64,000 nt of DNA, taken from an uncultured Bacteroidota bacterium (GTDB lineage Bacteria; Bacteroidota; Rhodothermia; Rhodothermales; DATKEJ01). Below are positions 28,364 through 42,745 of this stretch, one piece after another. The number at the start of each line of letters is the position of its first letter. Within the stretch, counting starts at the first letter, position 1. The stretch lies in the NCBI GenBank assembly GCA_963768715.1, contig CAVYJC010000010.1:85199-149198 (forward strand). The letters are read 5' to 3'. The position numbers and the translations under genes were made by a program. Under the pieces are notes generated by a model, which searched no databases, had not been told where the DNA came from, and was given only the letters and a program-made list of their open reading frames with translations.

Positions 28364-28367
28364 GTTG

Positions 28368-28440
<73 letters not shown>

Positions 28441-28444
28441 TCGA

Positions 28445-28531
28445 TCAGTCATACGTCACTGGACACTAGTCATTAGAACCTGACCCTCAAGGGAGCGCCA
28501 GCGACTAATGACTGATATGATTAATGACTAA
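28445..28531. repeat. Inverted heptamer arrays (hairpin) between tuf and tRNA-Trp
   Basis: tcagtca tacgtca ctggaca ctagtca ttag ... cgactaa tgactga ta tgattaa tgactaa. The last unit overlaps the tuf TAG. Confidence 0.8.
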
Positions 28532-29718
28532 TCCAGGATTTTGGTGACGACGCCGGCGCCGACGGTACGACCGCCTTCGCGGATAGCGAAGCGCAGGCCG
28601 TCTTCCATGGCGATCGGCTGGATCAGCTTCACCGTGAACTGCGTGTTGTCGCCCGGCATGACCATCTCCACTCCCGCCGGCAGATCAATGTCGCCCGTTA
28701 CGTCCGTCGTACGGAAGTAAAACTGCGGCCGGTATCCCTTGAAAAACGGCGTGTGGCGGCCTCCCTCATCCTTCGAAAGCACGTACACCTCCGACTCAAA
28801 TTCCTTGTGCGGCGTCACCGATCCCGGCTTCGCAACCACCATCCCGCGCTCTACCGCCTCCTTGTCGATCCCGCGAAGCAGTAGCCCCACGTTGTCGCCC
28901 GCCTCACCGCGGTCCAAAAGCTTGCGGAACATCTCTACCCCCGTCACCACCGAAGACTGCTTCGCATCGTGGATCCCAAGAATGTCGACCGTCTCACCCA
29001 CCTTGATCACGCCCCGCTCGATCCGACCCGTCACCACCGTCCCGCGACCCGTGATCGAAAACACGTCCTCGATCGGCATCAAAAACGGCTTGTCCACGTC
29101 GCGCTCCGGCGTCGGAATGTAGCTGTCAACCGCTTCCATCAACTCCAGCACCGACTTCTCCCCGTCTTCCTCCCCGTTGAGCGCACGCAGCGCGCTTCCG
29201 CGGATCACAGGAATGTCATCGCCAGGAAACTCGTACTGGTTCAATAGATCGCGAATCTCCATCTCCACCAACTCCAACAACTCCTCGTCGTCGACCAGGT
29301 CCACCTTGTTCATGTACACGATCAGGTACGGAACTCCCACCTGACGCGCCAGCAAAATGTGCTCGCGCGTCTGCGGCATCGGCCCGTCCGTCGCCGCCAC
29401 CACCAGTATCGCCCCGTCCATCTGCGCCGCACCCGTAACCATGTTCTTTACATAGTCCGCGTGGCCCGGACAATCCACGTGCGCATAGTGACGATGCTCC
29501 GTCTCGTACTCCACGTGTGCCGTCGCGATCGTGATACCACGCTCTCGCTCCTCCGGCGCATTGTCAATCGAGTCAAACGAACGAATCGTCACCCCCGTTA
29601 CGTGCTTCGCAAGCACCATCGTGATCGCTGCCGTCAACGTCGTCTTACCATGATCAACGTGACCAATCGTACCCACGTTAACGTGAGGCTTCGTGCGCTG
29701 AAACGTCTCCTTTGCCAT
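28528..29718 (-). CDS. tuf: Elongation factor Tu
   Basis: [18 protein letters not shown] and [11 protein letters not shown], with an AAGGAG SD. Confidence 0.99.
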
Positions 29719-29825
29719 AACTCCTTGTTGTCAATTGTCACATGTAAACATGACAAAAACGAGCCGCCTGAACGGCCAAACCCGGCAAGCTGTTTCCTCG
29801 CCGGCCGATTCTTGTCACTTCTTCG

Positions 29826-29897
<72 letters not shown>

Positions 29898-29900
29898 TGC

Positions 29901-29982
29901 TCAGCCATTGGTCACCAGACATTGGTTCTTGGCCCAGCCATGGCTCGAGCCTAATGACTAATGGCCAATGGCTAGTGACTAA
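29901..29982. repeat. Inverted heptamer arrays (5+5 units) between tRNA-Gly and tRNA-Thr
   Basis: tcagcca ttggtca ccagaca ttggttc ttggccc [agccatggct cg] agcctaa tgactaa tggccaa tggctag tgactaa. Confidence 0.85.
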
Positions 29983-29988
29983 CATCAG

Positions 29989-30061
29989 AGCGGGAGACGA
30001 GACTCGAACTCGCGACCCTCAGCTTGGAAGGCTGATGCTCTACCAACTGAGCTACTCCCGC
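29989..30061 (-). tRNA. tRNA-Gly (TCC)
   Basis: GCGGGAG acceptor stem and anticodon arm TCAGC-CTTCCAA-GCTGA. Confidence 0.97.
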
Positions 30062-30064
30062 GGG

Positions 30065-30224
30065 CTGGTTGTTGGACACTAGACATAGTCACTGGTATTC
30101 ACAGTTAGTGGCTGACCAAAGCTGTGAGACCCGATCATGCCAAGACCGAACGTCAAAATACAAAAGAACAACTCATACCTGGTCATTACTCACCAGTGAC
30201 CAATGTCCCGTGTCCAATGACTAA
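30065..30224. repeat. Inverted heptamer arrays enclosing about 95 nt between tRNA-Tyr and tRNA-Gly
   Basis: ctggttg ttggaca ctagaca tagtca ctggt ... accag tgaccaa tgtcccg tgtccaa tgactaa. Perfect 9-bp (GTCACTGGT/ACCAGTGAC) and 8-bp (TTGGACAC/GTGTCCAA) pairings. Confidence 0.8.
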
Positions 30225-30227
30225 TCG

Positions 30228-30309
30228 TGGGCAGGGGAGGATTCGAACCTCCGAAGGCTAAGCCAGCAGATTTACAGTCTGCCCCGTTTGACCGCTTCGG
30301 TACCTACCC
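30228..30309 (-). tRNA. tRNA-Tyr (GTA)
   Basis: GGGTAGG acceptor stem, anticodon arm GCAGA-CTGTAAA-TCTGC and a long variable arm. Confidence 0.97.
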
Positions 30310-30330
30310 GGTTTCCAATTATCTCGGAAG

Positions 30331-30403
30331 AGCTGGCGAAGGGACTCGAACCCCCGACCTGCTGATTACAAATCAGCTGCTCTACCAACTGAGCTACGCC
30401 AGC
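30331..30403 (-). tRNA. tRNA-Thr (TGT)
   Basis: GCTGGCG acceptor stem and anticodon arm GCTGA-TTTGTAA-TCAGC. Confidence 0.97.
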
Positions 30404-30544
30404 ATGTCTCATCTAACTCTACGAAGAACTGAACCACGAGAAGATCTGCGCCGACACCAGCCCACTCCGTACACGAGACCTCACCCGGCAACGCAATTCC
30501 GCCAGATAGAAAAGCTAGGAAACGTGCAGTGAAGACAGAATTAA

Positions 30545-30574
30545 AAGGTACGACCCGCGTTCTTTTCTTGTCAA
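30545..30574 (-). promoter_or_regulatory. Putative sigma70-type promoter of the tRNA-tuf operon
   Basis: Minus strand TTGACA-N18-TACCTT, about 140 nt upstream of tRNA-Thr(TGT). Confidence 0.6.
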
Positions 30575-30692
30575 TAAATCGAGGTGGGCTGTTTTGTCGG
30601 TTTATCGTGAATCCGGTCTGTGACTGCACTGAGCAGACTGAAGGGGCGTCCTTGCTTAACAAAGAAGTCACGTTTCGCCCGCGCGCTCCAGC

Positions 30693-30722
30693 TTGGTATG
30701 TTCTGACCGCTGGTGGTATATT
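30693..30722 (+). promoter_or_regulatory. Putative promoter of tRNA-Gln-prs-rplY-pth
   Basis: TTGGTA-N18-TATATT, 34 nt upstream of the tRNA. Confidence 0.45.
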
Positions 30723-30756
30723 TAATGTTTCTCGAAAATCGCCGTTTTGGCGAGCT

Positions 30757-30827
30757 TGCCCGGTCGTCTAATGGCAGGACAGCGGCCTTTGGAGCCGTAC
30801 GTGGAGGTTCGAATCCTCCCCGGGCAG
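30757..30827 (+). tRNA. tRNA-Gln (TTG)
   Basis: TGCCCGG/CCGGGCA acceptor stem, anticodon arm GCGGC-CTTTGGA-GCCGT and GTTCGAATC. Confidence 0.96.
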
Positions 30828-30897
30828 CGATAATAATCCAACCGATCGTGGCCGCCAAATGGTGTCGCGCCGTCGATCGCCCGTTTCTTCGAAACTG

Positions 30898-35443: not shown

Positions 35444-35547
35444 TCGATCTGCCGTATTCCTTTCTTTACGGGAAGGAATGTATATTAATCTTCTCTTGCA
35501 ATAACGGCCCTCGAAGGCACCGGGCTGAATAGACGATGCGCTAAGGC

Positions 35548-37281
35548 ATGGCGAAAGTTGACGTCATAATGCCCAAGATGGGCGAAAGTGTCATGGAAGG
35601 CACTGTCCTGACGTGGCACAAGAAGCCCGGAGATGCTATCGAGGCCGACGAAACGTTGCTCGAAATCGGCACCGACAAGGTGGACTCTGAGATTCCCTCG
35701 CCGTCTGCCGGCACGGTCACCGAAATCAAGGTGCCCGAAGGGGAAACCGTCGCCGTCGGTACGGTCGTGGCCGTGATCGAGACCGAGGCCGATGCAGCCA
35801 TCGTCGAGACGGACCAAAGCCCGTCCCCTGAGGCCCAAGCCGAGGAAGCACCCGCCGAGCAGCCTCCCGTCGAAGCGGAATCCAATCCGCAGGAGACACC
35901 GGCAAGTTCTTCAGACACCTCCATCATCGAAGTGGTGATGCCCAAGATGGGTGAGAGTGTAATGGAGGGGACGGTACTGACCTGGCACAAGAAGGCCGGC
36001 GACCGAATCGAGACGGATGAGTCGTTACTCGAAATCGGCACCGACAAGGTCGATTCCGAAATCCCCTCTCCTGGAGCCGGCATTGTTCAGGAAATCAAAG
36101 TGGCCGAAGGTGAAACGGTCGAAGTGGGCACGCTGTTGGCCACGATTGCGGCCGAAGGAGCCGTGCCGTCACAGAGAACGACCACCGCTGTGCCAGCTCC
36201 CGACACTGCCAGGGCTCCCGAGCCCTCTGCGCCTGCCCCCTCAACCCCATTTCCGGCGATTACTCCGGCTGGAGGCGACGGCATGCCGTCGACCGAAACG
36301 GCACGGCGGGGAAGCGACGGGCGTTTCTACTCTCCCCTCGTACGCTCGATCGCAAAAACCGAAGGGGTAAGCGCCAGCGAACTGCAGGCGATCTCCGGAT
36401 CAGGGCGCGAAGGGCGCGTGACAAAGGATGATATTCTTTCGTACATCGAGCACCGGAGATCGTCAGGCGGCGTAATGACGGCCGTACCCACGCAAACCGT
36501 CGAGGCACCCAAAGCGCCGAACGTCGCAACGCCCGCATCGCCGATCGTCCAAGCGCCCGCATCCGACGGGCGGGTCGAAGTCATCGAGATGGACCGCATG
36601 AGGCAGGTCATCGCCCAGCACATGACGCGTTCGCTTGCGACGTCCGCACACGTCACATCGTTCGCAGAAGCTGACGTGACCAACTTGGTCAGACTGAGGG
36701 AATCGAGGAAAGAGACTTTCGAGGCGCGAGAGGGCGTGCGCCTCACCTATACGCCGTTCTTCGTCAAGGCGGCCGTCGAAGCACTGAGAGAACACCCCAT
36801 TCTCAACGCATCTGTAGAAGAGAATCGGATACTAATTAAGAAGGACTTTCACATCGGAATAGCCGTTGCGATTGACAAAACCGGGCTCGTCGTGCCCGTG
36901 ATTCGCAACGCCGGCGGAATGAACGTTTCGGGCCTGACCCACGCAGCGTCCGACCTTGCCCGCCGCGCTCGAAGCAAGCAACTCCAACCCGACGAACTGC
37001 AGGGCGGTACGTTCACCGTTACCAATGTAGGCTCGCTCGGATCACTCATGGGAACACCAATCATCAATCAACCGCAGGTCGCTATCCTGGCTATGGGGGC
37101 AATAACCAAGCGCCCGGTCGTCAAGGAACACCCCGACCTCGGAGATGTGATTGCCGTCAGACATATGGTGTACCTGTCATTGAGCTACGATCACCGGATT
37201 ATCGACGGGGCAATGGGGGCATCGTTCTTGCGCCACCTCGTCAGCAATCTCGAAGCGATCGGGCTCGACTATCCGCTCTGA
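35548..37281 (+). CDS. 2-oxoacid dehydrogenase E2 (dihydrolipoamide acyltransferase) with two lipoyl domains
   Basis: Two near-identical lipoyl domains (EIGTDKVDSEIPSP), E3-binding SPLVRSIA...GSGREGRVTKDD and catalytic DHRIIDG. Substrate (sucB versus branched-chain) cannot be determined here. Confidence 0.94.
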   Translation: MAKVDVIMPKMGESVMEGTVLTWHKKPGDAIEADETLLEIGTDKVDSEIPSPSAGTVTEIKVPEGETVAVGTVVAVIETEADAAIVETDQSPSPEAQAEEAPAEQPPVEAESNPQETPASSSDTSIIEVVMPKMGESVMEGTVLTWHKKAGDRIETDESLLEIGTDKVDSEIPSPGAGIVQEIKVAEGETVEVGTLLATIAAEGAVPSQRTTTAVPAPDTARAPEPSAPAPSTPFPAITPAGGDGMPSTETARRGSDGRFYSPLVRSIAKTEGVSASELQAISGSGREGRVTKDDILSYIEHRRSSGGVMTAVPTQTVEAPKAPNVATPASPIVQAPASDGRVEVIEMDRMRQVIAQHMTRSLATSAHVTSFAEADVTNLVRLRESRKETFEAREGVRLTYTPFFVKAAVEALREHPILNASVEENRILIKKDFHIGIAVAIDKTGLVVPVIRNAGGMNVSGLTHAASDLARRARSKQLQPDELQGGTFTVTNVGSLGSLMGTPIINQPQVAILAMGAITKRPVVKEHPDLGDVIAVRHMVYLSLSYDHRIIDGAMGASFLRHLVSNLEAIGLDYPL

Positions 37282-37385
37282 GTTAAATAGTTACCGCTAA
37301 ATAGAAACTCCGGCCCAACGACTGGGCTCGCCTGAGGGACTCGGACGACAGTTCGTCCGCAAATCGGGTTACATGTCGACAAGCC

Positions 37386-38309
37386 ATGCCGGGACCACCC
37401 CTAAAACTGTCCGTTGCCGAGCTCGACCAGAGACTCGAGGAATTCGCTGGTTCATACCTGCGTAGCAAGAGTCCCGAAACCGTCGGCACATATCGAAGGG
37501 CCTTGAACGAATTCCAGAGATGGTTCGCCGTTCAGCGACCTAAATTCCTCTTCAGGGTAGACGACATCGAGTCATACAAGGAGTACTTGATGAAGACACG
37601 CGGACTCCATCAGGTTTCGGTTTCAACCTACCTGACCGCTCTCCGGCGATTTGCGCAATATCTTGTGGATGTCGGTCTTCTGGACGAGAATCCGGCCCGG
37701 GCCGTAAAGGGCAATCGTCGGCCAAGCACGCATTCGCGAGCAGTACTTACCGAGGACGAGATCGATCGCTTATTCAGGGCCGTCGACACCTCATCACCGA
37801 TAGGACTTCGGGATGAAGCGATCATATTCTCGATGCTTTACGCCGGATTGAGCGAAATTGAGATCGTGCGTGCGAATGTAGAGGACCTCGAGCAGACTCT
37901 GCTTGGCTGGTATCTCCGCGTGCAGGGGAAAGGCCACCAGGTAAAGGATCAGCAGGTCGTTCTTGATCCCCCCGTCATGAGCAAGATCAGAACGTACCTT
38001 GATACGAGGACGGGGCTAAAACCGGCCGATGCCCTGTTCGTTTCTCACGGCCATCGATCCGAGGGAGAGCGATTGAACACACGGTCGGTAAGGAGCCGCA
38101 TTCGGCACCATCTGATGATCGCGAAAATAAAGCGTCCGGGCGTCACGCCTCACAGCCTGACACACACCGCGGCGCTTATCTGGTTGAACGACGGGTTGAG
38201 CGTGGAAGAGGTGAAAGAGCGCATGCGTCACGGAACGCTCGACACAACAATGATCTACCTCAGAAAAAAGGGACTGCTCAAGCGCCGAGCCGCCGAAAGC
38301 GGGGCGTGA
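37386..38309 (+). CDS. XerC/D-like tyrosine recombinase family protein with both catalytic Arg substituted
   Basis: SAM-like core-binding domain (SPETVGTYRR, STYLTALRRF, NPA), RDEAII..YAGLS, VQGKG, ALFVS, TPHSLTHT and MRHGTLDTTMIY. Confidence 0.9.
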   Translation: MPGPPLKLSVAELDQRLEEFAGSYLRSKSPETVGTYRRALNEFQRWFAVQRPKFLFRVDDIESYKEYLMKTRGLHQVSVSTYLTALRRFAQYLVDVGLLDENPARAVKGNRRPSTHSRAVLTEDEIDRLFRAVDTSSPIGLRDEAIIFSMLYAGLSEIEIVRANVEDLEQTLLGWYLRVQGKGHQVKDQQVVLDPPVMSKIRTYLDTRTGLKPADALFVSHGHRSEGERLNTRSVRSRIRHHLMIAKIKRPGVTPHSLTHTAALIWLNDGLSVEEVKERMRHGTLDTTMIYLRKKGLLKRRAAESGA

Positions 38310-38345
38310 CCGGTACGAAGGCAGGCACTTCTCAAAGTCGTCTCT

Positions 38346-38654
38346 ATGTTGTCTCCAAGAAAGACATCGGGAAGGGAGGTTCACTTGAAAGCTGGCAAGT
38401 GGACCACCGTTGCGGTCAACAAGGGCCTTCGACCAAAGCATCTCTATGTCGAGGTCTGGGCTCCTCGAACAGCCTCCTGGCGCCGGATCGGGATTTTGCC
38501 CGGTTTCGGACGTTTCAGGCAGTTCCTTTCGACCTTGCTGCCCCTGGGAATTGTTCAGGTAAAGATCCGTGAGAATCGGACCTGCAACGTGACCATCGGC
38601 CATTCAGCTGAAATTGTACAGCCTGAACCGCGGCCGGAAAACGACGATCTCTGA
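38346..38654 (+). CDS. Hypothetical small basic beta-rich protein
   Basis: Fills the gap between the recombinase and the convergent protease, with 8 nt between the stops. An alternative TTG start at 38385 follows GGAGGT. No motif recognised. Confidence 0.45.
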   Translation: MLSPRKTSGREVHLKAGKWTTVAVNKGLRPKHLYVEVWAPRTASWRRIGILPGFGRFRQFLSTLLPLGIVQVKIRENRTCNVTIGHSAEIVQPEPRPENDDL

Positions 38655-38662
38655 CGAACCGG

Positions 38663-42745
<4,083 letters not shown>

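Follow-up and report, generated by a model that had tools for sequence, protein, structure and literature searches.

A 64,000-nucleotide stretch from an uncultured Bacteroidota bacterium (assembly GCA_963768715.1, contig CAVYJC010000010.1, positions 85,199 to 149,198), the whole of which is referred to here as the window, contained a gene for a Xer-like tyrosine recombinase, P0001, in which the residues at both catalytic arginine positions were replaced. The analysis suggested that P0001 is probably an ancient domesticated pseudo-recombinase, which would act as a stand-alone, non-cutting DNA-binding protein. The gene and its parts were located in the window as follows.

37386..38309, plus strand: pseudo-recombinase gene (P0001), Xer-like, 307 amino acids, from the open reading frame (ORF), Pfam, an AlphaFold2 (AF2) model and Foldseek
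37413..37703, plus strand: N-terminal core-binding SAM-like domain, residues ~10–106, with four long helices (PF02899, PF13495 and PF13102, and the model)
37743..38267, plus strand: C-terminal catalytic-fold domain, residues 120–294 (match to PF00589)
37851..37853, plus strand: Ser156, codon AGC, at the position of the first catalytic arginine (Arg I, box I), from the XerD alignment and direct reading of the codon
37929..37931, plus strand: codon of Lys182, the catalytic lysine position of the beta-hairpin (GKG), kept (XerD alignment)
38160..38162, plus strand: Thr259, codon ACA, at the position of the second catalytic arginine (Arg II, box II, HxLRH), from the XerD alignment and direct reading of the codon
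38256..38258, plus strand: codon of Tyr291, the nucleophile position, kept here and repeatedly lost in orthologues (XerD alignment)

The ORF at 37386–38309 of the plus strand was uninterrupted, and its product contained both domains of the superfamily, scoring 66.1 bits with PF00589 (cut-off, 27.1) and 43 bits with PF02899 (cut-off, 22.3). P0001 reached none of the Xer equivalog cut-offs of NCBIfam; the scores were 124 bits against a cut-off of 335.15 for XerC (TIGR02224), 114.3 against 329.6 for XerD (TIGR02225), and 113 against 220 for XerA. Annotations named the protein integrase, XerC or XerD, and matches in the ESM Atlas were to generic XerC-family clusters only. In a phmmer alignment with Escherichia coli XerD (PDB ID: 1a0p), whose catalytic residues are numbered R148, K172, H244, R247, H270, and Y279 (the index of the 1a0p chain is offset by 2), S156 was placed under the arginine of GLR and T259 under that of HxLRH. 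K182 was placed under the lysine of GKG, H256 and H282 under the two histidine residues, and Y291 under the nucleophile. The catalytic set of the enzyme was thus incomplete in P0001, Arg I being Ser156 and Arg II being Thr259, with the Lys, His, His, and Tyr residues present. The Pfam matches and the XerD alignment confirmed the original prediction on the intact 307-residue ORF, on the replacement of both arginines by Ser156 and Thr259, and, by the alignment, on the retention of K182, H282, and Y291.

Two further arginine residues, R162 and R281, were present in P0001, as the original prediction had stated. They were conserved in all of the 120 closest database homologues, which had at least 68% identity and of which the named ones were Rhodothermia, Rhodothermales, and Rhodocaloribacter. 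Of 92 canonical sister recombinases carrying the full R-K-H-R-H-Y set, 89% had both as well, which indicated that they are ancestral rather than compensatory; the suggestion that they had newly arisen was not supported.

The AF2 model of P0001, made with a 23-row alignment, had a predicted local distance difference test (pLDDT) value of 91.7 and a predicted template modeling (pTM) score of 0.81. Its N-terminal domain had helices at residues 10–27, 30–53, 58–71, and 76–95, and the elements of the catalytic domain followed the expected order. By E-value, the best Foldseek matches were XerA (4e-13), IntI, and XerD, and the highest template modeling (TM) scores, 0.69–0.71, were with the clamps of DNA-bound Cre (Cre-loxP), XerH, and lambda Int. 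According to the model, the two-domain C-clamp fold of tyrosine recombinases is complete in P0001. The family's best-conserved peptide in a 9-row alignment, VS[VI][SAG]TY[LM]TA[LVT], lay within the N-terminal core-binding domain. A two-copy complex prediction of P0001, for which controls were not run, scored 0.00.

The order of the window was taken as Rhodothermales from the names of the close homologues. At position 156, 119 of the 120 closest homologues had Ser and one had Ala; Thr259 and Lys182 were each present in 120/120. For the codons, we used 78 gene copies of the order, taken from named genome records and the window (the best 80 related loci were all from Rhodothermales). Position 156 was encoded by AGC in 52 loci, AGT in 10, TCN in 9, and GCC in 7, and position 259 by ACN in 77 and TCC in one, with no Arg codon at either site; position 291 was TAY in 73, TCG in 3, and CAC in 2. 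The use of both Ser codon families at position 156 indicated a long residence of Ser there. Among 95 orthologue rows of the class, box I Arg was found in none and box II Arg in one divergent row. We sampled 120 genomes of the class: each of the 59 genomes of the order had exactly one strong match (37–74% identity to P0001), the gene was also found in both genomes of a second order (f15), and the other families gave one weak match in 59 genomes. The ratio of nonsynonymous to synonymous substitution rates (dN/dS), calculated by the Nei–Gojobori method, had a median of 0.098 among the 22 pairs whose dS was under 0.5, with a maximum over all bins of 0.52; such estimates are rough where GC content is high and dS saturated. 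One ortholog (G108) flagged for an internal TGA was not a pseudogene, the codon being the natural stop of a shorter protein. The order thus keeps one copy of this core gene, vertically inherited and under purifying selection. The marks of a pseudoenzyme were found together, namely loss of catalytic residues, retention of the fold, and purifying selection (dN/dS of 0.09–0.3). The claim of a long-standing pseudo-recombinase maintained by selection thus held: Ser and Thr were fixed, dN/dS was well below 1, and neither Arg at both sites in the close orthologues nor neutral evolution was found.

These results bear on the explanation that the replaced arginines reflect a sequencing error, recent decay, or the remnant of an integrase from a dying mobile element. 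The AGC and ACA codons are each one base from an Arg codon, a point of the original prediction that direct reading of the codons confirmed, and PHROGs placed the protein under integrases. However, the substitutions were fixed across the order with both Ser codon families in use, and the gene was covered by metagenome contigs of four runs (three studies), which agreed with it; none of the 40 differences examined, out of 51, fell in the two codons. The single-copy, syntenic state of the gene, the purifying selection on it, and the absence around it of att-like repeats and of genes for phage or defence functions also opposed this explanation, which we consider extremely improbable.

Loss of catalytic residues went further in some orthologues. 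Tyr291 was absent in 19 of the 95 orthologue rows, with Ser, His, Asp, Asn, or Phe in its place, and a tree of these rows built without the catalytic columns required at least seven changes between Tyr and non-Tyr. K182, H256, and H282 were all kept in seven of the Tyr-less rows, which indicated that the conservation of these residues does not require catalysis. The most degenerate forms belonged to one genus, g12 (11 genomes, family f9), in which H256 was replaced by Gln or Leu and H282 by Pro; position 259 was Thr, Ser, or Val, and position 182 was Lys, Glu, Arg, or Ser. Y291 was replaced by Asp in nine of these genomes and by Asn in one, and was Tyr in one. The dN/dS values within g12 were nevertheless 0.088–0.224 (24 pairs with finite dS). 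The g12 proteins were basic, with isoelectric points of 9.7–9.9, and the model of a g12 orthologue had a pLDDT value of 88.5 and XerA as its best Foldseek match (E-value, 8e-13). Judged from these substitutions, catalysis is dispensable in the family. Family f9 as a whole (loci L174 and L203–L216) evolved faster, with 37–57% identity to P0001 compared with 60–74% elsewhere in the order; active-site loss in f9 was graded, and its loci had no upstream motif of the kind described below.

Proteins without box I Arg extended beyond the order. Nearly all nearest relatives of P0001 among representatives at 50% identity lacked this residue and had S, T, N, A, or Q instead; after a length filter, 38 representatives without box I Arg and the 92 with the full R-K-H-R-H-Y set remained. 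One large sister subfamily had Ser in box I in 93% of its members and kept Arg II in 100%, with Phe at the His II position in 91%, Ile at the His III position in 84%, and Tyr kept in 100%. The two subfamilies thus differed in state, one having both His residues with Thr, and the sister subfamily having Phe and Ile with Arg II kept. Named members of the latter were Candidatus Kapabacteria, metagenome-assembled genomes of Chlorobi/Chlorobiota, and "bacterium HR21". When 401 genomes of the phylum were searched with a hidden Markov model of the family, the scores were bimodal: 65 genomes scored at least 225 bits and the rest at most 182 bits. These 65 comprised every one of the order's 29 genomes, the two of f15, and 34 from other classes, and the largest families were nearly devoid of it (f37, 2/87; f33, 0/21; f39, 0/28). 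Outside the order, box I was Ser or Ala in 8/8 loci checked. The neighbours in six loci of other classes were also housekeeping genes, with leuS in 3/6 and RecO, CorA, Sua5, and mnmA in addition, and no neighbour was common to all classes among these six loci. From these sequences, a wider box-I-less family is present in other non-Bacteroidia classes of Bacteroidota. In the trees, the box-I-less proteins fell on one side of a single branch, corresponding to one change, and the fully degenerate forms were nested inside the Thr259-type clade (support, 95); two rows with wrong frames and very long branches (G004_c304 and G235_c326) were disregarded. The family also offers a natural series of active-site decay, in which Arg I was lost, then Arg II or the two His residues, and then Tyr and Lys.

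The genome containing the window (G000; 4.6 Mb, 95.5% complete) had two PF00589 genes: P0001 and, on another contig, a canonical 315-residue Xer-like gene (L001; contig C11:351609-352553) with the pattern R..HxxR..H..Y. Neither reached a Xer equivalog cut-off. The question left by the original prediction, whether canonical xerC and xerD exist elsewhere, was accordingly answered in part: one canonical tyrosine recombinase was found, and no protein at the level of the XerC or XerD equivalogs. The L001 gene adjoined an ORF that, by eye from its translation, resembled the C-terminal part of a transporter of the RND/AcrB type.

The pairing of one dead gene with one canonical gene, which recurred in the complete genome G036, would suit a non-catalytic subunit or regulator of the Xer/dif machinery. 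In the manner of a silent XerC/XerD-type partner, such a protein would occupy one half of a site resembling dif, or would bind the canonical recombinase, and would control chromosome-dimer resolution. The complete genomes of a sister order without the family each had at least three strong canonical Xer-like genes, and a (K/R)xxGxL motif in the tail that follows the Tyr position recurred across subfamilies (by eye, in the 23-row alignment); both points would fit such a role. However, the partner was inconstant: orthologues of L001 with 45–79% identity occurred in approximately 37 of 61 genomes of the order (counted at 45% identity or more), and other genomes carried different, unrelated canonical recombinases, those checked having the R-K-H-R-H/W-Y set. 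One genome (G159) had canonical Xer genes of both the a-type and the b-type plus the dead protein, and the dead family branched beside the canonical Xer-like proteins P0130, P0145, and P0163 and not inside the Xer groups of the sister order; the named relatives of P0130 were from Thermodesulfobacteriota, Deltaproteobacteria, and Caldisericia. Furthermore, the search for dif yielded none that was conserved across the order. Since the canonical recombinases varied between genomes, a silent partner of one fixed Xer protein was not favoured, and we consider this role unlikely.

The dif search used a dif-core consensus and gave one match with one mismatch in the genome; this 19-mer was not conserved across the order, where matches were about equal to those of controls. 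It lies outside the window, at contig C7:299615-299633 (locus L162/L149), and reads GATAACGTACATTATGTAC, with an inner ATAA-N6-TTAT and a right arm resembling the XerD arm. The site was in an AT-rich stretch without long ORFs, and homology to G146, a genome of the same genus, began exactly there, the left flank being unrelated and the right flank aligning well. This alignment pattern fits a recombination or integration hotspot. A match to chain 14 of PDB entry 9i5v, the "RaiA" of Porphyromonas gingivalis (401 residues), was pursued as a possible link to ribosome hibernation and dropped, its N-terminal part having canonical GLR, HvLRH, and GH..Y. That part, of about 280 residues, aligned as a canonical XerC-like recombinase, and the 9i5v paper models only 34 residues of the 400-residue protein, in the tRNA site (PMC12123416). 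This "RaiA" may be a fusion of a recombinase with hibernation promoting factor (HPF) or a merged gene model in Bacteroidia; the hpf gene of the genome containing the window was on a different contig from P0001.

A short element upstream of the gene was conserved in much of the order. Of the order loci, 78 had 300 nt or more of sequence before the gene, and in 70 of them CCGTTAT was found on the coding strand within 300 nt upstream, against a background rate of 0.14 per kb-strand. The nearly genome-unique motif CCGTTATTGAC is a form of this element, whose consensus was tt.At.tCCGTTATTGAcA and whose median distance to the start codon was 148 nt, with start positions extrapolated from the protein alignment. 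Examples in the loci L042, L058, L065, and L077 lay 60–270 nt before the start. A second copy was present in 23 loci, mostly 43–44 or 64 nt from the first, and the element was also present where the gene for the dihydrolipoamide acyltransferase (E2), the usual upstream neighbour, was absent. The exact 12-mer was nearly unique in each genome: in G003 and G030, its sole exact match lay approximately 85–100 nt before the gene, a 12-mer with one mismatch was upstream of the gene in G010 and G022, and in G046 the sole exact match was elsewhere in the genome. In the other classes, C[CT]GTTATTG was found at most 70 nt upstream in five of six loci, on either strand, which argued for a protein-binding site. 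The genome containing the window had one exact 11-mer of the element, elsewhere, and the sole copy of the family motif in the window was the following.

35499..35507, minus strand: family motif CCGTTATTG (minus-strand reading GGCCGTTATTGCAAG), intergenic between the H+-pyrophosphatase (PPase) and E2 genes, weak candidate

This copy was not significant alone, with one match against 0.34 expected by chance.

The gene lay among housekeeping genes. EF-Tu, prs, L25, pth, PPase, and E2 were upstream in the window, and a convergent Met-zincin gene was downstream. The conserved upstream neighbour was as follows.

35548..37281, plus strand: dihydrolipoamide acyltransferase (E2), conserved same-strand upstream neighbour (Pfam)

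E2 was directly upstream on the same strand in 20/29 loci of one set and 56/76 of another, often preceded by PPase or pth, and was also upstream in the degenerate genus g12; the arrangement pth-PPase-E2-gene was conserved across the order. From this gene order, E2 is taken here only as a marker of vertical inheritance. The flanks of the gene had only short repeats at chance level and no att-like repeats, no phage or defence genes were found near it, and PADLOC gave no match for the gene and three neighbours. The context was thus as the original prediction had described it, the nearest tRNA cluster (28367–30828) being approximately 7 kb away and not adjacent. This cluster comprised tRNA-Thr, tRNA-Tyr, tRNA-Gly, tRNA-Thr, tuf, and tRNA-Trp on the minus strand, with tRNA-Gln alongside on the plus strand, and was followed by prs, L25/Ctc, pth, PPase, and E2. 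Between the convergent pseudo-recombinase and Met-zincin genes was a gap of 353 nt (38310–38662) without a long ORF, a match in Rfam, or a clear terminator on the plus strand. An Rfam search of 36500–39500 gave no match, a scan for sigma-70-type promoters found none, and terminator-like matches were at chance level.

Taken together, the fixation of a single-copy gene across the order despite the lost Arg residues suggested that P0001 most likely grips DNA without cutting it. P0001 keeps the Xer-type C-clamp fold, would no longer perform phosphoryl transfer, and would be maintained for a non-cleaving task on DNA. In keeping with this reading, a catalytically intact recombinase was encoded in addition to the dead gene in all five genomes checked (G000, G036, G038, G024, and G076). 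DNA binding was inferred from the basic character of the protein and from the helices of the core-binding domain being its best-conserved segments, and the fixation of K182, H256, and H282 even where Tyr is lost suits a role of these residues as phosphate contacts. Binding would probably be sequence-specific and probably at the upstream element. Our best guess is a sequence-specific, non-cutting DNA clamp serving as a regulator or architectural factor; by binding the CCGTTATTGAC element upstream of its own gene, it would be at least an autoregulator. The element is our leading candidate for a site bound by the protein itself, where it would serve as an autoregulatory operator. The small remaining probability goes to something else, such as RNA or protein binding.

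Several observations weigh against this interpretation. The motif was absent upstream of the window's own gene and was present in 0/12 loci of the g12 genus and its nearest relatives, and a TTGATT-like block lay approximately 17 nt downstream of the element in many loci, so that the two could simply be a conserved promoter. A search of sequencing runs found no RNA run carrying the gene. Support for the branch of single origin was weak, with values of 35 and 65 in the Shimodaira–Hasegawa-like approximate likelihood ratio test (SH-aLRT) in two trees; in the tree with the value of 65, 17 of the 18 box-I-less rows formed a clade with 96% support. In the main clade (S-K-H-T-H-Y), E159, K182, H256, and H282 were 100% conserved and Y291 approximately 95%, as altered or residual chemistry would likewise predict. 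R178 lies where beta-strand 1 ends and reached 99% conservation in the order clade only; the sister subfamily and the canonical relatives had Tyr or another residue there.

The last two observations are those expected if the main clade were still an enzyme, cleaving and rejoining DNA at an active site so rewired that R178 and/or R279 stand in for the arginines. Position 279 was basic in 100% of the order and 95% of the Kapabacteria-type subfamily, and not in the canonical sisters. There is a precedent for the loss of Arg I in the integrase of CTnDOT, for which another Arg, located where the first beta-strand ends, has been proposed as a substitute (bioRxiv 10.1101/542381); R178 lies in the region of that proposed rescue residue, which makes a rewired site conceivable for the main clade. 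The main clade would then consist of phosphoryl-transfer enzymes without either Arg, with R178 and R279 providing the charge and CCGTTATTGAC as the target. However, both arginines were lost and not one. In Cre, the only replacement tolerated at Arg173 is His (Lys in vivo) and the only one at Arg292 is Lys, and the Tyr and Lys residues are strictly required (PMC2943603); Thr and Ser are outside these tolerated substitutions, which counts against a rewired enzyme. Tyr was lost at least seven times while the Lys and two His residues stayed fixed, R178 was changed to Asp together with a change of Tyr to Ser in G024, Arg also occupies the R178 position in XerD, and the active-site states differed among subfamilies. 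The original prediction had offered a rewired site as an option; given the recurrent loss of Tyr and the selection on g12 despite its losses from the catalytic pentad, we consider it very unlikely. If this reading were true, the family would have an active site of the recombinase or topoisomerase-like kind not seen before, and a later shift to a purely structural role would be confined to g12 and the Tyr-less orthologues.

The non-cutting protein proposed here can be compared with known recombinases. P0001 resembled XerC, XerD, and XerA (PDB IDs: 1a0p, 5hxy, and 4a8e), which were its best matches, in size, in the two-domain fold, and in the lack of an arm-binding domain, and its gene, like those of Xer, was chromosomal, single-copy, and vertically inherited. 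It differed from them in its scores (114–124 bits against equivalog cut-offs of 330–335), in Ser and Thr at the Arg I and Arg II positions, in a nucleophile that is dispensable in orthologues, and in a branch separate from the Xer-like groups of the sister order. Genes for XerS and XerH adjoin the DNA sites of their own recombinases, difSL and difH, which is similar to the near-unique conserved motif adjoining genes of the P0001 family; however, XerS and XerH are active at the terminus, whereas the motif is an asymmetric core of 10–13 nt, not a dif-like 11-6-11 arrangement, and is absent upstream of the window's copy. Domesticated recombinase genes derived from Crypton elements in vertebrates are a eukaryotic parallel. 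The unloading of SMC by Bacillus subtilis XerD is said to be independent of catalysis. This XerD is described as a sequence-specific unloader of SMC at the terminus (PMC12322038, citing Karaboja et al. 2021), and P0001 would resemble it as a Xer protein in a site-specific architectural task; there the protein is a fully competent recombinase, whereas here the catalytic capacity appears to have been discarded. The CTnDOT integrase, IntDOT, is from the same phylum and also has box I Arg replaced, the main clade having R178 in the strand of the proposed rescue residue. IntDOT is described as keeping the rest of the pentad and having an arm-binding domain, being active, and residing on a mobile element (bioRxiv 10.1101/542381), whereas in P0001 Arg II was also lost, with Thr259 in 120/120 of the closest homologues, the protein had two domains only and no arm domain, its neighbours were housekeeping genes without a mobile context, and Tyr was repeatedly lost in the family. 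Literature searches found no description of the family, and a term search of the same preprint, which classifies recombinases (10.1101/542381), gave no match for "inactive", "pseudo", or "degenerate"; its supplementary tables might place these proteins in a subgroup.

The usual view of tyrosine recombinases is that they are enzymes serving mobile elements or chromosome-dimer resolution. The family should not be counted as integrases or Xer proteins in annotating mobile elements or dimer-resolution systems. The candidate cognate element beside the gene makes the function directly testable. The results point to an unrecognised, probably DNA-site-specific housekeeping function of the recombinase clamp fold in deep-branching Bacteroidota.

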